Shown piece after piece: positions 5,171 to 21,737 of a stretch of DNA of 21,737 nucleotides. The stretch covers positions 1 through 21,737 of the forward strand of contig JAHQWG010000041.1 in assembly GCA_029856045.1 (NCBI GenBank). The letters run 5' to 3'. Origin of the DNA: Promethearchaeia archaeon (GTDB lineage: Archaea; Asgardarchaeota; Lokiarchaeia; Sigyniarchaeales; SOKP01). The notes beneath the pieces were generated by a model. The model had not been told where the DNA came from. It searched no databases and worked only from the letters and a program-made list of their open reading frames with translations. The position numbers and the translations under genes were made by a program. Each line of letters starts with the position of its first letter. The first letter of the stretch is position 1.

Positions 5171-5953
5171 ATGAGTAAATTAAAAAATAACACCAATGTT
5201 GAGGAAATGCGTTCTTCAATTAAGATAGCCACGACGGCAATGATGACTGTTTTGGTTTGTATTGTGACAATGATGTTTTCGGTTTATTTACCATCAAGTA
5301 ATGGATTTTTTAATGTTGGTGAAGCGATGGTTTATATTAGTGCAATATTGTTTGGTCCATATGTTGGTGCAATTTCAGGAGGTTGCGGCTCCATGTTGGC
5401 GGATCTTTTATTGGGATTCCCTCATTATGCTCTTGGAACATTAGTTATTAAGGGAATTGAAGGTTTTATTGTAGGTTTTTTTTATTTTAAGATGAAAAAA
5501 TTAGCATTATCTCAGAAAAATTGGTATCTTTTAACGATTTTAATTGCTTCTTTAATTAATTTAGCAGTAATTCTTATTGGATTTATATATTATCAAGGTT
5601 TAGCTTATGTTGGTGGATATATTGGAGGAACTCCTATTTGGGAAATTACTGCAGAATTTAATATGATATTATGGCTCATAATAGGTGTAATTGGATTCAT
5701 TTCTATCGTTGTTATTGGATATAAATATAGTCAAGATATTGGACTTAAAATCATTTCTATGTTATTAGGTGGCATTATTATAGTAATTGGCTATTTATTA
5801 TATGCTACATTTGTTTTACAGTATGCAGGGGCATTTACAGAAATTCCATTTAATTTTCTTCAATCTTTTATTGGAATATTAATCGCTGTTCCAACTATTT
5901 CTTCTTTAGAAAAATACAGTGGGGTTATCACATTCACTAAGTTTAGAAAATAA
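5171..5953 (+). CDS. Solitary ECF transporter substrate-specific (S) component
   Basis: GFFNVGEAMVYISAILFGPYVGAISGGCGSMLADLLLG...YALGTLVIKGIEG and C-terminal EIPFNFLQ are typical S-component motifs; 260 aa with an extra central TM hairpin. Confidence 0.85.
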   Translation: MSKLKNNTNVEEMRSSIKIATTAMMTVLVCIVTMMFSVYLPSSNGFFNVGEAMVYISAILFGPYVGAISGGCGSMLADLLLGFPHYALGTLVIKGIEGFIVGFFYFKMKKLALSQKNWYLLTILIASLINLAVILIGFIYYQGLAYVGGYIGGTPIWEITAEFNMILWLIIGVIGFISIVVIGYKYSQDIGLKIISMLLGGIIIVIGYLLYATFVLQYAGAFTEIPFNFLQSFIGILIAVPTISSLEKYSGVITFTKFRK

Positions 5954-11613: not shown

Positions 11614-12243
11614 ATGGGAGGAAATAATAGTAGCAGAGTTGAATATTTAATAGAAGGGTTATGGATTCTAGAAAATCTATCTGGAATATGTCTTTTTGAA
11701 GAAATTTATAGTGATTTTACTAAGGAAGGAATCTCAACCGATTTGATTACAAGTTTTTTATCGGCATTATTAAGTTTTGCAAACGAAGCTTTCACAGATG
11801 CAATACAACATATTCAATTATCAAGCCGTAAAATTTTGTTTGAATTAACTAAAAATGTATTATTTGTTGCAGCTATAAACGCAAAAGCACCTGCTGCTGA
11901 TGCTGAAATTAAATACGCAATTCGAAAAATTGCTAAAGTATTTAATAAAAAATTTAAATCTTCTTTTAAAGATGGGAGTTGTGGTGGGAAAGTTAGTGTT
12001 TTTAATTCATTCTCAGATGATTTAAGAAAAATCGTGAAAAAGGAGCCTTTAACACTAAAATTTTTAACTGTCGAGCAAGCTATAAATAAATATCAAAAAC
12101 AAATGTTAAAAACAACTCAAGGGTATTCTAAAAAAATACAAGATTTTCAAAAAACACAAACGAATATGACAAAAGATTATATGAAGGAAGCGCGAGAACA
12201 TATGCTTTTGAGAAAAAAAGAGAAAAGAAAAAAGAAACTTTAA
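11614..12243 (+). CDS. Longin-like domain protein with a basic coiled-coil C-terminal tail
   Basis: IEGLWIL..SGICLF...DLITSFLSALLSFANE...IQHIQL..RKILF...LFV...IRKIAKVFNKKF...FNSFSDDLRKIV matches the Asgard longin-like pattern; tail ends RKKEKRKKKL. Confidence 0.72.
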   Translation: MGGNNSSRVEYLIEGLWILENLSGICLFEEIYSDFTKEGISTDLITSFLSALLSFANEAFTDAIQHIQLSSRKILFELTKNVLFVAAINAKAPAADAEIKYAIRKIAKVFNKKFKSSFKDGSCGGKVSVFNSFSDDLRKIVKKEPLTLKFLTVEQAINKYQKQMLKTTQGYSKKIQDFQKTQTNMTKDYMKEAREHMLLRKKEKRKKKL

Positions 12244-12680
12244 ACTAAATTATCAATGAATTTTATTTTAACAACGGATGATAACTCATCTAATACTTGA
12301 CCGATTTCTTCTTCTTTTTTCATATAAACTGGTATGATACGTATTTTTCCAATTGCCAGAGAATAACAATCGGCAATAGAAATTGGAAATTTGCACTTCA
12401 AATGAAATGCCTCATCTCTCAATTCGCTTTCGGAATAAATTATAAAATCTTTTAAGAATTCTGATACAAATTCTTTTGCATTCTGATACCCACTTTTACG
12501 GCAAAAAATATATTTCAGTTCCATATCAACTAGAGGACTTATATAAAATGTCTTAAATTGAGGGTTTTCTAGAATTTCGTGAAAAAATGCTTTACCTAAT
12601 GTTGAATCCTCAAGAACTTCAATTAAAACTCCAGTATCAACTGCGATTGAAGTGATTTGTGAGTCTTTTTTCTCGTTCAT
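12240..12680 (-). CDS. vapC: PIN-domain ribonuclease toxin (VapC family)
   Basis: VDTGVLIE, ELKY and ISIADCYSLA acidic PIN residues; overlaps the upstream antitoxin by 44 nt. Confidence 0.85.
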   Translation of the reverse strand: MNEKKDSQITSIAVDTGVLIEVLEDSTLGKAFFHEILENPQFKTFYISPLVDMELKYIFCRKSGYQNAKEFVSEFLKDFIIYSESELRDEAFHLKCKFPISIADCYSLAIGKIRIIPVYMKKEEEIGQVLDELSSVVKIKFIDNLV

Positions 12681-12918
12681 TATCTTCTTTCCTCAATTCT
12701 TTAAGCAATACTTTACCTTCGCCAGGCTTAAGTATACCTTGATATTTTTTAATATTTTTAAGAAAATCCACTTTATTTACTTCAGTTTTTCGTTCTTCTA
12801 ACAAATAATTAATAATCTCATCGTATGTAACCCTCCGCCCCCACATCTTTTCGAGTTGATTCATAACGATAAATAATTTTTTCTTAGTTTCTTCAGAAAT
12901 TTGAATTGTAGTTGCCAT
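12637..12918 (-). CDS. Antitoxin, archaeal VapB-like ribbon-helix-helix protein
   Basis: MATTIQISEETKKKL...VTYDEIINYLL RHH-like N-terminus, directly upstream of and overlapping the PIN gene. Confidence 0.78.
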   Translation of the reverse strand: MATTIQISEETKKKLFIVMNQLEKMWGRRVTYDEIINYLLEERKTEVNKVDFLKNIKKYQGILKPGEGKVLLKELRKEDNEREKRLTNHFNRS

Positions 12919-13025: not shown

Positions 13026-13928
13026 TTAAAAAAAATATGTAAAAAATATTGAATAAAGGGAAGGAAATTGAATAAATGGGATAAAATGAATGAGACTTAA
13101 TAAATAATACATAAAAAGTGCCCCAATTGTGAGAATAAAAATAATATCCTTCTTTTTAAAAGGAATTTCTATTAGATTTGTTCGAGTTTTGTATAAACCA
13201 AAACATCTATTTTCCATTGATATGGATGTGATATCTCCTTTTCTTAATATTGAGACCAGAATTGTGATGAGCCTTTCTTTTATAAAATTATAAGCTTTTT
13301 TAACTGTATTAGCCTTTTCCCTCCCAAATCCTCTAGCTCTTTGAGCAAGTCCAATTGTTCTTGCTTCTTGTTGGATTAGGGGGATATATTTAAGTCCAAC
13401 CATAAAAGCAAAACTATATTTATAGGAGACCCCGGTTTTCATCAATGCATAGACAAAATCCTTCATGGAAGTTGTATGGGTAAAAATTATTGCAGATAAG
13501 AATAAGATAAGGATCCATAATGCGTTTCTTAATGCATAGTAAACGGCCAATCTTCTAATCGGTAAAAAAGTAAGATTAAATAAATAGAATAAGATTTGAG
13601 ATTCTTCATTGGGGATTGCGTTAAAGAAGATATTTAAGATTATAGAAAAGAGACTTAATATTAGAATCCATTTAAATTTATAAAAAAGAGATTTAATTGA
13701 CATTTTGCTTGACAGCGCTAAAAAAAAGGTTAATAAAAAAACGATTGAAAGAAAAGTCAGACTCTCGATTGAGAATACAAAAATCGTAAATAATATCAAG
13801 AAAAACAATTTGCTTATGGGATTTAATTTATGCAAGAAAGAATTATTTGGAACATAGGAAAAGAAATCCCTTGTCTTATCTAAATTGAATTGTTTCCTTT
13901 TAATTTTTTGTTTTTTGTATTTAGTCAT
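13026..13928 (-). CDS. ecfT: ECF transporter transmembrane T component
   Basis: SFLHKLNPISKL, TT..DFVYAL, KYIPLIQQEARTIGLAQRARG and SMENRCF (the two ARG-like coupling motifs). Confidence 0.92.
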   Translation of the reverse strand: MTKYKKQKIKRKQFNLDKTRDFFSYVPNNSFLHKLNPISKLFFLILFTIFVFSIESLTFLSIVFLLTFFLALSSKMSIKSLFYKFKWILILSLFSIILNIFFNAIPNEESQILFYLFNLTFLPIRRLAVYYALRNALWILILFLSAIIFTHTTSMKDFVYALMKTGVSYKYSFAFMVGLKYIPLIQQEARTIGLAQRARGFGREKANTVKKAYNFIKERLITILVSILRKGDITSISMENRCFGLYKTRTNLIEIPFKKKDIIFILTIGALFMYYLLSLIHFIPFIQFPSLYSIFFTYFF

Positions 13929-13934
13929 ATCTTT

Positions 13935-15626
13935 TTAGATTTTACCTAACTTTTTATTTATAATATTTAATAAAGAAATTGGCCCTAAACTTTGGTATTT
14001 TTGGAAGTATGAATAATTTTCTTCATATTCTATTAAATTACCGTTATCTAACTCAATTATTTTATCCACATGATTTAGAAGTAAATGATAATCATGTGAA
14101 GATATAATAATTGTTTTGCCTTTTTGCTGCTCCTGATAAAGTATATTAATTAATTCATCTATTGTTTTTTGATCTTGACCTATGAATGGCTCATCTAATA
14201 AAATAATTTCAGGATCATAAATAAAAATTGAAGATAAGTTTAACCTTCTTTTCTGACCCCAACTAAGGTTAAATGGATTTCGATCATATTCAACATTTCC
14301 AACCATTCTCATTAATTGATTTAAATTCTCTTCATCAAATTGATTTAGGAGATTAAAATTTTTTGGGGCATATAGAATTTCATCTCTTATTGTATTTTTA
14401 AATAGCATATTTTCGGGATTTTGAAATATGAATCCTATCTTTTCAGCATATTCATAAAAATCAATTTCCAAAAGATTTCTTCCTTTATAATATACTTTCC
14501 CCTTAGATGGATTATATAATCCAGCTAATAGGTAAAGTAATGTTGTCTTCCCGCAACCATTATGACCAACTAATCCAATAAAATCTCCTTTATAGATTTT
14601 TAATGAAATATTGTTTAAAGCCATTCTATTAAGTTTAGGGTATTTAAATGAGGCATTCTTAAGTTCTAAAAGAATCTCACCTTCCATTCCGTCAGAATAT
14701 TCTTTATGGTTCATAAAATTTTCATAGAGTCTATTTTTCAATAATTCCAGATTCCTATTCGTTTCTTTATTAATTATTTCAATAGCAGTATCAAAAAACA
14801 ACGGAATTTCACGTTTTGGTGTTTCCAAGGCAGAAATAAAAAGATCTGGAATCCAAGGGATTCTTAGATTACAAGATTTTAAATCATTGAAGTGGTTTCG
14901 AAATAGATTATTAATTGAACCTTTAAGTGCAATTTCTCCATTATGATTTAATACTAACAAATAATCAGCAATATCTAATACCTTAGATAATCTATGCTCA
15001 ACAATTATTATAGATAAATCCAATTCTTTATCTTGATAGAGCTTTTTTAATCGATTCAATAATAAAGTGGAAGATTTTTGGTCCAAAAAGGCAAATGGTT
15101 CATCTAAAATTAAAATTTTAGGTTTCATTACCAAGTAGGAACAGATTACAACGATTTGCTTCTCTCCTCCACTTAAATCATCAATATCTCGATCAATTAA
15201 ATGCTCAATATTCATAAACTCTACTATATCATCTACTCTTTCGATTATTTCCTCCTTCGGAAGATTTAAATTCTCTAATCCAAATGAGATTTCATCTCTT
15301 ACAGTAAATGTCACTAATTGTTCATCTGGGTTTTGTTTAACTAATCCCACTTTTTTTGATAATTCAGCTAAACTTTGATCCCAAACACTTAAACCGAAAA
15401 CTTTTACATCTCCCTTCATATATCCAATTTGTCTAAAAGGAATAATTCCATTTAGAGCATTGCATATCGTGGATTTTCCACTTCCACTACTCCCCGCAAG
15501 AATTAGAGTTTTTCCTTTTTCTAGTTTAAAAGAAATATTTTTTACTGCAGGTCTAACATGATTATCATTTCCATATATAAACGTAAATCCATCAAATTCC
15601 AAGGCAAAATTGTTTTGTTTGTACAT
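13935..15626 (-). CDS. ecfA: ECF transporter fused double ATPase (A-A')
   Basis: GSSGSGKST / QNPDEQ / LSGGEKQ / LDEP / EH and GHNGCGKTT / FQNPE / LSWGQKRR / LDEP / SH. Confidence 0.93.
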   Translation of the reverse strand: MYKQNNFALEFDGFTFIYGNDNHVRPAVKNISFKLEKGKTLILAGSSGSGKSTICNALNGIIPFRQIGYMKGDVKVFGLSVWDQSLAELSKKVGLVKQNPDEQLVTFTVRDEISFGLENLNLPKEEIIERVDDIVEFMNIEHLIDRDIDDLSGGEKQIVVICSYLVMKPKILILDEPFAFLDQKSSTLLLNRLKKLYQDKELDLSIIIVEHRLSKVLDIADYLLVLNHNGEIALKGSINNLFRNHFNDLKSCNLRIPWIPDLFISALETPKREIPLFFDTAIEIINKETNRNLELLKNRLYENFMNHKEYSDGMEGEILLELKNASFKYPKLNRMALNNISLKIYKGDFIGLVGHNGCGKTTLLYLLAGLYNPSKGKVYYKGRNLLEIDFYEYAEKIGFIFQNPENMLFKNTIRDEILYAPKNFNLLNQFDEENLNQLMRMVGNVEYDRNPFNLSWGQKRRLNLSSIFIYDPEIILLDEPFIGQDQKTIDELINILYQEQQKGKTIIISSHDYHLLLNHVDKIIELDNGNLIEYEENYSYFQKYQSLGPISLLNIINKKLGKI

Positions 15627-15642
15627 ATCTCTTTCAAAATTG

Positions 15643-16320
15643 TTAACTTTTATCTAAATTTGTAATCTCATTTGTTTTTACAGTAAAAATGGCTTGAGCT
15701 GCAATAGGTACACCTGCTTTTATTAAGTAGTTTTTAATAACTTTCCCTAATAAACCAGCTATAAACACACCTGATAAAAATGCAAAAATCATTGCTAATA
15801 TGAATAAAGATATATGAAGAGTAAATAATTTTCCCGAAATATACCAAAAAACGGGAACTTGAGTTATATTTCCAATTCCACCTGCAATCCCCCAACCTAA
15901 TTTTGAATCTCCTTCATTAAGGTGTTCCATAATAAAGAAACCTACAAGTAATGAAGCACCTTCTAATAAATTTATTCCTATAATAATAATTCCATAAGAA
16001 CCAGTTATGAGAAATTCGAGTATTCCTTTTGTAAACATAGAGATAAGAATCCCAGGTTTATTTCTTGTTAAACCATAAAAAATCGCAACCCAAATAATAT
16101 GATGTGCAGATGCTAATTGTGTTCCGCCCGTAAGAGGGTACCACACTTTTATTAATAAATCAAAGGGTATAACACTTGAAATGATTCCTCCAAGAGTCCC
16201 AAAAATTGTTGCATAAAGTAAAGTTCTAATTGAAATTCCAAATCTGCTTTTTTCAATTTCTAAATTTTCTACTCCAGTCCTTTTAAATTCTTCTTTTGTG
16301 TCTTCAAGATTTTTTTCCAT
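15643..16320 (-). CDS. ECF transporter S component (dedicated, group I; YkoE-like fold)
   Basis: About 6 TM helices with the pattern HHIIW..., KPG..., KGILE..., G...LLEG; adjacent to ecfA and ecfT. Confidence 0.75.
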   Translation of the reverse strand: MEKNLEDTKEEFKRTGVENLEIEKSRFGISIRTLLYATIFGTLGGIISSVIPFDLLIKVWYPLTGGTQLASAHHIIWVAIFYGLTRNKPGILISMFTKGILEFLITGSYGIIIIGINLLEGASLLVGFFIMEHLNEGDSKLGWGIAGGIGNITQVPVFWYISGKLFTLHISLFILAMIFAFLSGVFIAGLLGKVIKNYLIKAGVPIAAQAIFTVKTNEITNLDKS

Positions 16321-16341
16321 AGAGCAAAATCACCATTAATT

Positions 16342-16914
16342 TTAATATACCCTAATTGCAACTGTATGTTTTGCAGTATATATGGTATTCCAATCTGGAA
16401 ATAAACTTCTATTCACTATTCCTTCTATCGGACCTCTATCCGGTTCCCCTCCCATGGGCATCCCGTTCCTCTCATAAGCTAGCAAAACCAATTCAGGATT
16501 TTGTTCAACTACCGAAAAGAGGATATTTCTACTAACATATAAATCGCTCGCTTCAAATCGAAATCTTGTGGAATTGGGATTTAAGCAATTTTCTTTATTA
16601 AAAATGTCCCATATAACCGCCCCAGAATAATTATCAACCCAAGTATTCCCAAAATCATTAATAAAATAAAATCTATGATTTATTACTTGTTGATAATTGG
16701 ATTTTAACTGAGTTAATGTGATATTGACTTCTCGTTTTACATTTCCGTATATTTTAATTGAAATTTCAGTATTACCATTTATTTGTTGTTCTATAAATTG
16801 CAAATTATAGATTGTTAGTCCAATTGATGCACTTATAACTATTCCAAATAATATAAAAATAGAAAGATTCCTTTTTGATAAAAAGTCTCTAATTTTATGT
16901 TTTGAATTATTCAT
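16342..16914 (-). CDS. Membrane-anchored molybdopterin-oxidoreductase (sulfite oxidase/MsrP-like) fold protein
   Basis: N-terminal TM; IKIYGNV..ITLTQL; YSGAVIWDIF; RFEASDLY; LLAYERNG; RGPIEGIV; AKHTVAIRV. Confidence 0.7.
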   Translation of the reverse strand: MNNSKHKIRDFLSKRNLSIFILFGIVISASIGLTIYNLQFIEQQINGNTEISIKIYGNVKREVNITLTQLKSNYQQVINHRFYFINDFGNTWVDNYSGAVIWDIFNKENCLNPNSTRFRFEASDLYVSRNILFSVVEQNPELVLLAYERNGMPMGGEPDRGPIEGIVNRSLFPDWNTIYTAKHTVAIRVY

Positions 16915-16925
16915 TTTGTAAATAA

Positions 16926-17840
16926 TTATCTATTATTCTTTATTGCAATAAATTTCCTTTTCCAAATTATAATTAATCCAGTTAAAAAAATCATAATAAA
17001 TAAAGTGAAACCTAATTGATAACCTGAAATAATAAGAGCTGGAAATTCAGAAAAATGTAAAGCATAAATCCACGATATTGCGTGATCTTCACCTTCTCCT
17101 GTACCATATTCATTATCCAATATAGCGATTGTAAATTCATATATCGTCTTTTCTTCGAATTGAACATCATATTGCTCACCGGTTGTTAAAGGTCGAGAAA
17201 TTTCTATTTGATAACGATTTGTATCATTAAACCAGGTTCCATAAATCATACCTGTCTCTATTTGGCTAATTTCAGAATTGTGAGGATACCAACCATCATC
17301 TCCAAAACATGTATCATAACCGTTGTATGAAGAACCATTTTCTTTTCCTATCCGATATCCCCATTGCCAAGTATCCACATCTCCTCCACCATACGGACCT
17401 GTCTTCATACCTTGGTAAAATGCCGCAGTATAATTTGACATATTTATGTTCCAACACATTGAAAATTGATCCCAATTGCTCAGTGGAGTTGAATCCTCCC
17501 AACTAGCCAAAATAAATAAGTGGGTATCACTATGAGCGAAAGATATATTAACGTATCTAATAAAAAAATTAGGAGAATAAAAATCAGCGGCAACGGGTAT
17601 CAATATAGAATTATTTTTTCCAGAAACATGCCAAAAATCTTCATTATCCTGACCATCAAGAGTAATAACCGCATTTGGGTCATAATATATATCCACATGA
17701 GTAGTATGATGATAATATTGGCAATCTCCTTTACCAGGCCACGAAGACCCTATAATTATAGGAGCAGATATAGCTTGAATTATGAGAAATATTAAGAAGA
17801 AAAAAAAAAATGGAATTAAAGTTTTTTTATGGAGCGCCAT
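16926..17840 (-). CDS. Secreted DOMON / ethylbenzene dehydrogenase gamma-like putative heme-binding protein with a Loki-CTERM-like anchor
   Basis: Signal peptide; ITLDG...EDFW; HLFILASWEDST; DQFSMCW; GM; DTWQW; EISRPLTTG..DVQF; FTIAILD; H; C-terminal ISGY + TM + KRK. Confidence 0.7.
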   Translation of the reverse strand: MALHKKTLIPFFFFFLIFLIIQAISAPIIIGSSWPGKGDCQYYHHTTHVDIYYDPNAVITLDGQDNEDFWHVSGKNNSILIPVAADFYSPNFFIRYVNISFAHSDTHLFILASWEDSTPLSNWDQFSMCWNINMSNYTAAFYQGMKTGPYGGGDVDTWQWGYRIGKENGSSYNGYDTCFGDDGWYPHNSEISQIETGMIYGTWFNDTNRYQIEISRPLTTGEQYDVQFEEKTIYEFTIAILDNEYGTGEGEDHAISWIYALHFSEFPALIISGYQLGFTLFIMIFLTGLIIIWKRKFIAIKNNR

Positions 17841-17871
17841 TACTTTATCACAATTATTTTTTATTTATTTT

Positions 17872-18978
17872 CTATATTTCAATATATATACTAGTTAACC
17901 ATTTGTTATATCCCTTCTTTAATTGCCCTGGAACTATTAACTTATAAGGACCACCATCAACGAGCTTTAAAGATGTAGGATTTCCAGAGCCCACTTTTTG
18001 ATGCTGAATCTCTGCATTCACAATCCACATTAGATTACCCTCTGGGGCATGAATTGAATCCATTGGCATCGGAAATCCAGTGCCAGGAATACAATCTCCA
18101 GTTGTTGCATTCAAAGTACAATTAACAATAGATGGTTCCACCAATCCTGATTCAATGTCTGTATTATTGTATCCTGAGCTTGGCCAAGAAAATCCGTCTA
18201 CACAATCCCATGTAATGTTATAATTTTCCAAAATATTCGCTTCTTTTGTGAAATTTTTTAAGGTCCTTCCTTTTATTGTACAATTCCAGTCAAAATATTC
18301 CGTTCCATTATCATCATACCACCAATGATATGTATTGTAATCTCCGATTCCTTCCATCATTTTATTTGTATCTATTGTGTAATTCAGAATTCCATTCACA
18401 TAAACCGGAATTACCCACTCAGATATAATCTCTATGCTTGTTACATTCATAATCGCCGTGGAGGCATTAAGATCTCCACCAAATAATGAAAAATTTCCAT
18501 AAGCAGCACCTAGCGGAGAATTTTTTAACCAATTATCATTAGCCATTATTCCAATAATTAGAGGGTTTGTTGTTTGAGGATTTTTTACCATATTTCCATC
18601 AGAATTAATCATAAACCCAACATCTGTATCCAGATTATCGGAAAAATTATGAACCTTTACACCCCAAGGAGCATGAAACCCAAAATAATTAAATAATTCT
18701 ACGACATTTACACCAGTTATATTATATCCTTGTCCAGTTGTTTCAGTATCCTCAAATTTTATTTGAGTTAAATCTCCAGATTCAATTAAATCTATTATAG
18801 TTGAAGCATTTATTGACTTCTCAGTTCCATCCCAATATTTTATTTTGAGATCTTGTAGAGGAGGGGAAGTATCAGATGTTGTCCCAATTTGCGTAATAAG
18901 CCATATTCCACCACTGACTCCAGCAATAATCACAGCAACTACTATTATACTTGTTATAATTAGATTTCTTTTCTCCAA
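17872..18978 (-). CDS. Membrane-anchored extracellular glycoprotein, probably two degenerate molybdopterin-oxidoreductase-like domains
   Basis: TTG start; N-terminal TM; ITGVNVVELF and IKGRTLKNF; DCVDGFS; GGPYKLIVPG...KWLTSIYI at the C-terminus; 14 N-x-S/T sequons counted. Confidence 0.55.
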   Translation of the reverse strand: MEKRNLIITSIIVVAVIIAGVSGGIWLITQIGTTSDTSPPLQDLKIKYWDGTEKSINASTIIDLIESGDLTQIKFEDTETTGQGYNITGVNVVELFNYFGFHAPWGVKVHNFSDNLDTDVGFMINSDGNMVKNPQTTNPLIIGIMANDNWLKNSPLGAAYGNFSLFGGDLNASTAIMNVTSIEIISEWVIPVYVNGILNYTIDTNKMMEGIGDYNTYHWWYDDNGTEYFDWNCTIKGRTLKNFTKEANILENYNITWDCVDGFSWPSSGYNNTDIESGLVEPSIVNCTLNATTGDCIPGTGFPMPMDSIHAPEGNLMWIVNAEIQHQKVGSGNPTSLKLVDGGPYKLIVPGQLKKGYNKWLTSIYIEI

Positions 18979-19001: not shown

Positions 19002-19029
19002 ATCATTATGAAAGCTTATACATAACGAT
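19002..19029. promoter_or_regulatory. ModE-box-like palindromic operator upstream of the 18978-13026 operon
   Basis: Minus strand ATCGTTATGTA-TAAGCT-TTCATAATGAT. The outer 9-bp arms ATCGTTATG/CATAATGAT are complementary at 8 of 9 positions. Same 11-6-11 geometry as the ModE consensus ATCGnTATATA-N6-TATATAnCGAT; 23 nt upstream of the TTG start. Confidence 0.65.
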
Positions 19030-19050: not shown

Positions 19051-19776
19051 TTATTTTTTTAAAATATAGCTAAAGATGGGAATAAAAAGAAAATATTTGT
19101 TATTCTCTATAGCTACATTCATTTTTTTATTTTTAAAATTATGATTAGTTAAAATTTTTTTAAAAAATTTTAGTTCTTTTAATAAATTATCTTTATTCTT
19201 ACTCGAAGTCCAAGGAACACTTATACAATATCGCTCAACTATCTCGAATTTTTGAGAAAAATATTGATTCATTTTTCTCCCCACTTCAGGATCGGCTCCA
19301 TTATCTTTCAAATTTGAGATTAATGCATCTTTTAAACCTGTTTCTGGAGATTCAATAACCCCTCCATAATCGGGCTCTGCAAGTATTAATAGAATACCTT
19401 CTTTTTTTAAAATTCTATGAATTTCATTGAAACATTTTTCAAGATCCTTAATCCATAAAAATAAATAATGTGTAATAATCACTTCAAATTTCTCATCTTC
19501 GAAGTCATTATTTAAAATATCCATATATTGAAGATTTGCCTTGATGTTCTCTTGATTTAAATTGTCTTTGGCAATTTTTAAACGATGTTCATCAATATCA
19601 ATTCCATATAAATTTAGATTAAATTCTTTCCCAATTTCTTTTAGAAGTGCTCCAGTGCCACACCCAATTTCCAAAAGATTTTTCTTGGTCTCCAGATTTA
19701 TTATCTTATAAATATGACTCCTGAATTCATAAGTCCACTTTAATTGTTCGCTGAATCTTATATTCCAATCAATCAT
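19051..19776 (-). CDS. Class I SAM-dependent methyltransferase
   Basis: LLEIGCGTG, GIDID, HRILKKEG, AEPDY, GADPEVGR. Confidence 0.9.
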   Translation of the reverse strand: MIDWNIRFSEQLKWTYEFRSHIYKIINLETKKNLLEIGCGTGALLKEIGKEFNLNLYGIDIDEHRLKIAKDNLNQENIKANLQYMDILNNDFEDEKFEVIITHYLFLWIKDLEKCFNEIHRILKKEGILLILAEPDYGGVIESPETGLKDALISNLKDNGADPEVGRKMNQYFSQKFEIVERYCISVPWTSSKNKDNLLKELKFFKKILTNHNFKNKKMNVAIENNKYFLFIPIFSYILKK

Positions 19777-19820
19777 AAAATAAGTGTTTAGTTATTGATA
19801 AAAAAAAATAAATTAAAAAA

Positions 19821-21212
19821 TTAAAAATTTGGAATATTACAAATTAATTTCTTTTGATCGATGTACAATGGGCATCCTCCGCCACAAATTCGTAATAATT
19901 CGCATTTTTTACATTTAGGCTCAATATATTCATGGTTTCTTATACTTTTAAACAGTTTTGAATTCCAAATAGTGTCCCAGTCATCTTTTAATATATTCCC
20001 AACAGGTTCATAGTAAGATTGGCAAGGTAAAACATCTCCATTTGGTTCAATTGCAATGCTTGTATTTGCTGCAGAGCATCTTTTTGGTCCCAAACCAATT
20101 TCTACTGGATTAATAGAACAATATTGAGTTGGAGTATACCAGATAAATCGCATGTCCAATTTTCGAGCTCGATTATTTATCTTGTTTAGTATTGGCTCTA
20201 ACTCTTCTTCAGCAATGCCGTGCTCAAACTCCTTTCCCTTACCAGAATAAATTAATCCATTACAAGCAAAAGTTTTTACGTTTAATTCATGAAGGAAATT
20301 TATTGTATCTTTAATTCCCTCGACGTTATGCTTGCATAATGTAGTATTAGTCATAAAGAAAATATCTTCTTCTTCAAAATTTTTGATTGCTTGAACGGTT
20401 TCATCAAACCCATCTACACCAACCATTTTATTATGGATTTCTTTATCATGAGATTCCAAAGTTATCTGAGCATAATCTAAACCTTTTTGTATTGCTTGTT
20501 TTACTAAGTTTTTATCAGCAAATTTCCTTCCATTAGTTATAATCCCCATTACAAAACCTTTTTCTTGACCATATGCGATCAAATCCAGAAAATCATCTCT
20601 CATTGTTGGTTCTCCTCCCGTTAAGGCTATATGCGGGACTCCAACATCCCATAATGCATCCATTATTCTTTTCATAGACTCTGTATCAAGTACTGGAAAA
20701 TCTCGTTCTCTTGCAACGTAACAATGTCCACAATTATTGTTACAGTCGTAAGTAATTGCTAAATCAATTCTTAAAGGAAATTCTGAAACTTTAAATGGCT
20801 TTTTTGCGTCTATTCCAATTTGGGAAAAGGGATCAACATCTTCCTCTGATAGTAAAAATTCTACTTTATCTAAAAGAGTATTATAATCTTCTTCTACTTC
20901 TTCGGCTGTTGTCCGAAAATATTTTATGAAAAATTCTTGAATTTCGGTTAAAGATTTTCCTTCAATAAACTCCTTGAAATACATCATAGCAAATTGATTT
21001 AAATAAAGTACATATTTTGCATCAATTATTAGGATTCCTTTACTATTTTTCAATATTCTTAAGTGAAATTTATGAGATCCAGTTTTTCTAAATTCAATTA
21101 TATTTGAATATACTCTAGGAATAGAATCATCAAAAACGAATTTTGGTAATATCTTCTTTTTTAATTTCTTGAAGAATTTTTTTGTTTTTCCTTTGGGTTT
21201 TACTATACTCAT
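19821..21212 (-). CDS. Radical SAM/SPASM-domain enzyme with an N-terminal PqqD-like RiPP recognition element
   Basis: CNNNCGHC; TGGEP; ITNG; SPASM CSAANTSIAIEPNGDVLPC...CKKCELLRICGGGCP; N-terminal LYLNQFA...EGKSLTEI...AEEVEEDYNTLLDKV three-helix RRE pattern. Confidence 0.92.
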   Translation of the reverse strand: MSIVKPKGKTKKFFKKLKKKILPKFVFDDSIPRVYSNIIEFRKTGSHKFHLRILKNSKGILIIDAKYVLYLNQFAMMYFKEFIEGKSLTEIQEFFIKYFRTTAEEVEEDYNTLLDKVEFLLSEEDVDPFSQIGIDAKKPFKVSEFPLRIDLAITYDCNNNCGHCYVARERDFPVLDTESMKRIMDALWDVGVPHIALTGGEPTMRDDFLDLIAYGQEKGFVMGIITNGRKFADKNLVKQAIQKGLDYAQITLESHDKEIHNKMVGVDGFDETVQAIKNFEEEDIFFMTNTTLCKHNVEGIKDTINFLHELNVKTFACNGLIYSGKGKEFEHGIAEEELEPILNKINNRARKLDMRFIWYTPTQYCSINPVEIGLGPKRCSAANTSIAIEPNGDVLPCQSYYEPVGNILKDDWDTIWNSKLFKSIRNHEYIEPKCKKCELLRICGGGCPLYIDQKKLICNIPNF

Positions 21213-21215
21213 CTT

Positions 21216-21737
21216 TTATCTACCTCCTCCAGCACACGCACATGCACACCCTGCACAAGCACAAGCACAAGCGCAACCTCCAGCTCCACCACGACCTCCA
21301 CCACGACCACCAGTACTTCTTGGTCGAGGAGGGGCAACTGTATTAACTATACTCTCAGCGAAATTGGTGAAATTCTTAACTATTGTATTGCTAACATTTT
21401 CCATACCCCGGACAATCGAATCTGAAAATGTATGGATATTAATATGCTGTTTAGGAAGTATATTCGCACTTATAGATCTTCCGGGATGATATGTATAGTA
21501 ATGATGCCGAGGCCAATAATAATGATACCAATAATAACGCGGATACCAATATGGATAATGAACATAATAACGGTGACTTAGATATCGTTCTGAACGTTTT
21601 TCAAATAGGTCATCTAAAACTATCCAGTCATATTCATCTTCAATATCTTCAAATTCTATTTCATTTGGCATCTTTTTAATTGTTTCCCATGCTTGATTAA
21701 TCATGTTATCATAGTAATAAGTTGTAGCGTCCAATTC
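21216..21737 (-). CDS. C-terminal part of a protein ending in a Gly-rich linker and the Cys-rich tail GGCACACACAGCACACAGGGR (putative radical SAM substrate; 5' end outside the window)
   Basis: The frame stays open past the TTG at 21734 to the edge (GAA at 21737-21735). Tail has 7 Cys; stop lies 3 nt before the rSAM ATG. Confidence 0.85.
   Translation of the reverse strand, partial: ELDATTYYYDNMINQAWETIKKMPNEIEFEDIEDEYDWIVLDDLFEKRSERYLSHRYYVHYPYWYPRYYWYHYYWPRHHYYTYHPGRSISANILPKQHINIHTFSDSIVRGMENVSNTIVKNFTNFAESIVNTVAPPRPRSTGGRGGGRGGAGGCACACACAGCACACAGGGR

Follow-up and report, generated by a model that had tools for sequence, protein, structure and literature searches.

A contig of a Promethearchaeia archaeon (JAHQWG010000041.1, assembly GCA_029856045.1), analysed over its whole length of 21,737 nucleotides and called the window hereafter, carries a six-gene operon that we read, from sequence comparisons, as a dedicated group I energy-coupling factor (ECF) importer for preformed tungsten- or molybdenum-molybdopterin, most likely tungsten-molybdopterin, with a probability of about 0.78. 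The host needs this cofactor, the genes for its synthesis were not detected and, in relatives, the importer takes their place; ready-made cofactor is therefore probably taken up. Since the genome has no tungstate transporter, pterin pathway or insertase, yet keeps AOR, Fwd and MobA, the imported pterin would have to be already loaded with metal, and the host's enzymes together with the swapped tup cassette point to tungsten rather than molybdenum. A first-pass annotation, made from the letters alone, had proposed the capture of either the intact cofactor or bare molybdate or tungstate. The former idea is supported, whereas the latter is unlikely to describe the main substrate because most carriers are without MoeA and the pterin pathway.

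The six open reading frames lie on the minus strand from 18978 to 13026, with intergenic gaps of 31, 11, 21, 16 and 6 nt, exactly as first annotated, and the usual order in relatives is A-(B)-C-S-AA'-T (43 Lokiarchaeia loci). The elements are:

19002-19029, no strand assigned: palindromic operator, core CGWTATGT-N8-ACATAWCG, 24 nt before the first start codon
18978-17872, minus strand: surface protein A, 368 amino acids (aa), TTG start
17840-16926, minus strand: surface protein B, 304 aa
16914-16342, minus strand: surface protein C, 190 aa
16320-15643, minus strand: ECF S component, 225 aa, YkoE (PF09819) type
15626-13935, minus strand: fused ECF ATPase A-A', 563 aa
13928-13026, minus strand: ECF T component, 300 aa, CbiQ/EcfT family

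Cofactor demand and the genes for its supply

The host genome (3.34 Mb, rated 100% complete; the window is its contig C40) was compared with Lokiarchaeia and Promethearchaeota relatives. It encodes about eleven enzymes that need a tungsten- or molybdenum-pterin cofactor: there are ten AFOR_C matches and nine AOR reading frames, with the four-cysteine-type cluster motif conserved in seven of the latter and the Glu-Tyr-Glu motif in six, as well as two FwdB copies with FwdA, FwdC and FwdF. A MobA-like gene is also present (E 2e-30, below the family cut-off). As for synthesis, BLAST of the host genome with Lokiarchaeial MoaB, MoaC, MoaD, MoaE and MoeA gave no matches, and MoaA retrieved unrelated radical SAM proteins only; at the level of protein families, no match to MoaC, MoeA_C, MoaE, the MoaA C-domain or ModA/WtpA was obtained in this genome, and none with a TupA query, while the controls were positive. 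The single PF00994 match, considered as a possible MoaB or MoeA, was rejected as CinA-like, a check made in the host genome only. The closed genomes of Promethearchaeum syntrophicum MK-D1, Ca. Lokiarchaeum ossiferum B35 and Ca. Harpocratesius repetitus present the same combination, the operon and AORs being found and the searches for MoaC, MoeA_C, MoaE, MoaA and TupA being negative.

This pattern extends across the class. Among 161 Lokiarchaeia genomes, 160 have AOR and 67 have the S component, 63 of them as close orthologues. Considering the 98 genomes of at least 90% completeness, 37 have the operon only, 51 moa/moe genes only, six both and four neither; at 95% or more the corresponding numbers are 25, 35, 2 and 1, and they become 37, 49, 8 and 4 (again at 90%) if distant S copies are also counted as carriers. 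Both states occur inside each of six genera. TupA is found in 62 genomes, only two of which are carriers. Fisher tests give P values down to 3e-16, which are overstated because kin are not independent, so that the tree count given below is the fairer measure. Outside the class, three other Asgard families and a single additional genome together yield 70 carriers when searched with the S profile, and MoaC is found in 0/70 of these and AOR in 70/70; conversely, S is found in none of the 51 MoaC-positive genomes. The check proposed with the first annotation, whether carriers lack moa and tungstate-uptake genes, thus gave a strongly positive answer.

The numbers bear directly on a second possibility, namely that the operon would be a new tungstate or molybdate oxyanion importer substituting for TupABC. 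Group I ECF transporters for nickel and cobalt exist, TupA and the operon are nearly mutually exclusive and have an operator in common, and in three loci ECF genes are followed by moa genes with no tup. However, 52 of the 63 Lokiarchaeia carriers are without moaC and moeA, and moaC is missing in all 70 other carriers, so that there would be no pterin for the oxyanion to join; moreover, the operon stands alongside Wtp or Tup in three genomes (G030, G080, G151), and pterin-fold surface domains would be unnecessary. We hold such a substrate to be decidedly unlikely. The TupABC/WtpABC systems with moa/moe resemble the operon in chromosomal slot, operator and end product, the tungsten-pterin enzymes; they import an oxyanion for de novo synthesis, whereas the ECF operon would replace uptake and synthesis both.

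Exchange at one locus and a common operator

In the host's family, the slot between a block of kinase-like and coiled-coil genes and a MoxR-vWA pair holds either the ECF operon or the cassette tupABC-moaC-moaA-moaD-moaE-moeA-moaB-moeA. Where both flanks are visible, there are 12 tup-moa cassettes and 16 ECF operons. On the tree of the MoxR gene ten changes of state are counted, at least eight of them forced by well-supported branches; these may correspond to repeated loss from an ancestor with both systems, or to repeated exchange. Possible intermediates include a locus with ECF, tup and moa genes (L046), three with ECF and moa genes (L038, L045, L056) and five with the ECF operon plus moaD and moaB remnants (L035, L039, L040, L049, L050). 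Three conserved upstream genes had been considered as tupABC and were rejected, being a kinase-like and two coiled-coil proteins.

These exchanges also speak to a third explanation, in which AOR and Fwd would obtain cofactor by a non-homologous route or work free of it, the operon simply marking the locus. Both options were left for organisms with "orphan" molybdoproteins (PMC6147048), and some genomes do have neither system; but at least eight independent exchanges at one locus, an operon that encodes surface and transport proteins only, and the retention of AOR motifs and MobA make this very improbable.

Upstream of the operon, just downstream of a TATA-like element (19049-19043), lies the palindrome that the first-pass annotation had described as a ModE-like box, and its position relative to that element suggests the geometry of a repressor site. 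Scored against the ModE consensus, the box at 19002-19029 has four mismatches, and ten such sites exist in the genome, which is AT-rich, so that the match by itself carries no significance. The window's own site reaches 15.4 bits and 4-15 shuffled sites score as high; it is credible only because it is conserved before the operon in relatives. The palindrome precedes the operon in 32/34 loci with up to four mismatches; with up to two mismatches the count is 26/34, which is circular, since the pattern was derived from those very sites. A matrix trained only on ECF promoters of other genera, for which tupA and moaC genes are out of sample, exceeds 16 bits before 24/26 tupA genes and 12 bits before 27/33 moaC genes, against a background of 2-3% of random windows in either case. 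In the host genome, its best match precedes an AOR-family gene. Being common to the operon, tupA, moaC and an AOR promoter, the operator places the operon in the tungsten-cofactor regulon by a line of evidence separate from gene content. The motif of the earlier proposal stands, then, while a recognisable ModE regulator was not found: no TIGR00637 match occurs in the host genome, where the only HTH_1 match is a 304-aa, LysR-sized protein, and no homologue is present there of the winged-helix gene that adjoins the operon at two loci.

Several neighbouring genes deserve mention. Extra S copies accompanied by a divergent FwdB/FwdD-like pair, with operator sites in between, occur at L047:6361-9130 and L060:7887-11946. 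A gene for an APH/RIO-like kinase of about 270 aa (L036:3133-3975 and homologues; host copy at G000 C51:266525-267349) lies in Lokiarchaeia beside the ECF operon as well as beside the tup-moa cassette, and in another Asgard family beside a fused-S operon; it could possibly be a pterin (re)kinase, or its place could reflect synteny only. A 308-aa radical SAM protein (L059:11976-12902, L076:13239-14168) precedes either type of cassette in a number of genomes belonging to a single genus. Within the genus of the window itself, the operon lies in surroundings other than the MoxR-vWA slot. In the window, co-oriented upstream genes (19051-21737) encode a methyltransferase, a radical SAM/SPASM protein and a protein whose tail end is rich in Cys and Ala/Gly, possibly a peptide-modification system, which adjoin the operon in close relatives only. 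Directly downstream of T, a pair at 12240-12918 resembles a PIN-domain toxin-antitoxin system, and a separate ECF S component (PF07155) without A and T genes of its own is located at 5171-5953.

The transporter and its pterin-fold partners

The S component, fused A-A' and T recognised in the first annotation are borne out by family profiles. The ATPase scores over the cut-offs of both ECF_ATPase_1 and ECF_ATPase_2, T belongs to CbiQ/PF02361, and S, which has no direct Pfam match, has homologues 50-60% identical to it that carry PF09819; against the Protein Data Bank (PDB), the sole match of the S profile is YkoE (5edl, E 1.7e-4). With S, T and ATPase in one operon and with S belonging by homology to an established S family, the system is by architecture a member of group I ECF transporters, and ATP-driven import is predicted.

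The closest known system of this kind is the Bacillus subtilis thiamine importer YkoEDC (YkoE PDB 5EDL; PMC5037267), which likewise has an S component of family PF09819 in one operon with ATPase and T. An ordinary YkoEDC-like importer of thiamine or hydroxymethylpyrimidine (HMP) is accordingly a rival reading, and homologues are labelled "thiamin/HMP permease" in their sources. Nevertheless, of the five residues that bind thiamine in YkoE, four are not conserved in the alignment (W49 becomes His74, Q95 Glu120 and D131 Trp159, and Y46 falls in a Ser/Val region), only E77 being kept as Glu102; the comparison comes from a distant alignment of hidden Markov models, in which single positions may shift. 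ThiC is present in 53/63 carriers, including the host genome, and shows no association with the operon (39/4 versus 52/3); an Rfam scan of the window gave no thiamine pyrophosphate (TPP) riboswitch and no other match. In contrast with YkoEDC, the S component has membrane-anchored pterin-fold partners here, to which it is fused in other lineages, and the linkage is to tungsten-cofactor genes and their operator, not to thiamine. Thiamine transport is thus hardly credible.

As regards these partners, proteins A, B and C are probably outward-facing, because each has N-terminal hydrophobic helices and 6-14 N-glycosylation sequons. Protein C consists of a transmembrane anchor (residues 17-35) and one domain of the sulfite-oxidase (SUOX) fold. 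Its model (pLDDT 95) superposes on PruR, SorA, YedY and sulfite oxidase with TM scores of 0.68-0.79, in accordance with the single molybdopterin-fold protein described at first. When a homologue that does have the Mo-ligating Cys, taken from a related locus, is aligned with it, Asn86 occupies the Cys position, 12 residues before a near-invariant Gly, and the hairpin is of full length; Asn is found at this site in 77/97 aligned relatives, and Cys is not among the common residues. Protein A, a putative cofactor-capture protein, has a single N-terminal transmembrane helix (7-25), 14 sequons and no conserved Cys. Of the two such domains first assigned to it, domain 1 is of the sulfite-oxidase/PruR type by structure comparison (Z 13.4 to PruR, rmsd 2.5, 127 aligned residues) and was the only one matched in the structure search, while domain 2 comes from a weaker, profile-only comparison (hhalign probability 90%, E 1.7e-6, 48 columns); the latter carries the Asp-Gly and Gly-Pro motifs of the family, with Arg commonest at the Cys-equivalent site. 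The surface proteins do therefore have the molybdopterin-binding fold, and the Mo-ligating Cys, whose absence had been suspected, is replaced by Asn, Gly or Arg in A, C and their relatives.

Linkage between this domain and S had also been anticipated, and it is conserved: protein C stands directly before S in 39/43 loci and, outside Lokiarchaeia, S is fused to the pterin-fold domain in 14/18 examined loci, usually adjoining ECF A and T. All 14 fused forms have Gly at the Cys site; of the four unfused loci, three are second copies, all belonging to one family, and in the remaining one the domain falls below threshold. Neither of the two findings that the first annotation had named as fatal to it was thus made. 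Related arrangements were observed elsewhere. One bacterial locus (L089:6836-17225, CP020559), a possible counterpart, encodes S-layer-homology proteins in which the SUOX-like repeats number up to eight, and two moeA genes lie close by; among metagenomic loci, L091:543-4403 combines S with a SUOX-like domain, MobB and a MobA-like gene, and L088:8-10614 has a four-repeat SUOX surface protein with an NTPase, ECF A/T and a ModA/WtpA-like binding protein.

Protein B has an EB_dh/NxrC-like DOMON fold flanked by N- and C-terminal hydrophobic helices, as profile and structure searches agree with the earlier assignment (PF09459 E 2e-6, below cut-off; TM score 0.75; NxrC 7b04 E 4e-5). Its Cys40, His44, Cys129 and His253 are invariant. 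It accompanies protein A in 28/35 loci and is absent from 7/35: it is optional to the system. The fold is shared with the heme-b subunits EbdC and NxrC, heme in protein B being hypothetical, and the window's operon has no catalytic Mo/W partner subunit. One could picture an extracellular Mo/W redox module of MsrP/SorA-like catalytic and heme subunits with its own supply transporter, given the enzyme fold and the resemblance of B to those gamma subunits. Such a module is most improbable: the metal-ligating Cys is replaced, no twin-arginine (Tat) signal was seen in the surface-protein sequences, B is optional and, in some loci, a true Cys-bearing homologue is encoded separately. At L035:4036-5085, an MsrP-like protein with its Cys lies with moaD and moaB remnants 3' of the operon, an arrangement found in five genomes without moaC and moeA. 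Compared with SorA (2blf) and MsrP/YedY (1xdq), the proteins described here have the molybdopterin-binding domain in common (TM scores 0.73-0.78) and differ in having no catalytic Cys, dimerisation domain or Tat signal, in a host without detectable cofactor synthesis genes. Judged by sequence, they are not enzymes of the sulfite-oxidase type.

A closer parallel is offered by the PruR receptors (PDB 7kom, 7kp2, 7kos, 7rkb; PMC11194511), Cys-less, extracytoplasmic, stand-alone sulfite-oxidase folds (TM score ~0.70, Z 13.4) that bind pterins outside the cell. In PruR the Cys site is taken by Trp, as part of a Pro-Trp motif, the hairpin is truncated, and the protein regulated is the cyclase DcpA (PMC11194511). 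The proteins of the operon have instead Asn or Gly in a full-length hairpin, a transmembrane anchor and an importer as partner, with no Pro-Trp motif and no DcpA-type regulator in the operon. The system is not PruR, but it probably works in a PruR-like manner, binding a pterin outside the cell.

Would that pterin be free of metal? Molybdopterin itself, one of its late precursors or degradation products, or an unrelated compound such as a pterin precursor of methanopterin or folate might be considered, the more so as the top structural matches are PruR proteins, binders of monapterin and neopterin (PMC11194511), and the PF02649 cyclohydrolase is missing from MK-D1, Loki-B35 and FW102. That cyclohydrolase is retained in the host genome, however, and the hairpin has the sulfite-oxidase length, not the truncated PruR form (PMC11194511). 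Metal-free molybdopterin could not be loaded by known means, because carriers are without MoeA and tungstate transporters, and an unrelated pterin leaves the same-locus exchange and the operator common with tup-moa unexplained. We consider a metal-free substrate unlikely.

Mechanism, objections and biological meaning

For the import of metal-loaded cofactor, a plausible succession of steps can be proposed. The Cys-less outward domains would hold the labile cofactor and protect it once it has left neighbouring or lysed cells; protein C would pass it to S, and A-A' and T would drive the toppling of S and release inside the cell, as in the standard ECF mechanism. The predicted complex of S with protein C scored 0.23 (mark 0.32), which is evidence neither for nor against such a contact. 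MobA would then add GMP for Fwd, whereas AORs would use the nucleotide-free form, and a repressor sensing cofactor or tungstate would switch the operon off. When bound to protein, the molybdenum cofactor (Moco) is stable and can be used by other organisms (PMC7849362), and its decay should be slower in anoxic sediments. S is preceded in one other family by a surface phosphodiesterase-like protein, sometimes with the same pterin-fold domain, which might trim dinucleotide forms of the cofactor. A fused S gene of another Asgard family is directly preceded, at L159:8082-9638, by a metallophosphoesterase-like protein that contains a pterin-fold domain.

Some observations weigh against cofactor import. 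PruR, the closest structural relative, binds small pterins other than Moco and probably cannot hold Moco itself (PMC11194511), and the free cofactor is unstable (PMC7849362). About 11 of the 63 Lokiarchaeia carriers retain moa/moe genes, and in three loci (G052, G153, G154) the operon lies before moa, at the usual place of tupABC, which tungstate import would equally explain. Neither system is found in the four genomes of at least 90% completeness mentioned above, in 21 genomes of one other family and in all 12 of another (AOR unchecked there). Finally, the absences come from family searches of mostly draft genomes, and related genomes are not independent. MoaC and S both went undetected in G241-G252, G106, G110, G117 and G143; the four Lokiarchaeia among these genomes have AORs, which might be explained by a different route of uptake or by gaps in the assemblies.

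The kind of transporter is known, a group I ECF system, while its substrate class is probably new: a described prokaryotic Moco importer was not found in the literature searched, the coverage of which was incomplete. Caenorhabditis elegans takes up dietary Moco and so likewise uses the cofactor of other organisms (PMC7849362), though this is an animal and no homology is implied. Comparative genomics left orphan molybdoprotein prokaryotes unexplained (PMC6147048); the operon names proteins for such cofactor uptake and a genetic pattern that predicts dependent organisms. The Cys-less binding domains, for their part, might serve as cofactor-stabilising carriers.

From the gene content, many Asgard archaea, including MK-D1 and Ca. 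L. ossiferum, would in good probability be tungsten-pterin auxotrophs that import the intact cofactor of their partners through dead sulfite-oxidase domains and an ECF transporter. The exchange list of MK-D1 comprises B12, biotin, lipoate and TPP, and a W/Mo-pterin cofactor is not on it; its medium supplies a Se/W solution (PMC7015854), the tungsten of which would not be usable by known means because the cell is without MoeA. A further nutritional dependence is thereby predicted for cultured Asgard archaea. If this is true, the operon would encode the first prokaryotic transporter of molybdenum or tungsten cofactor, and the cofactor itself would be a cross-fed vitamin.

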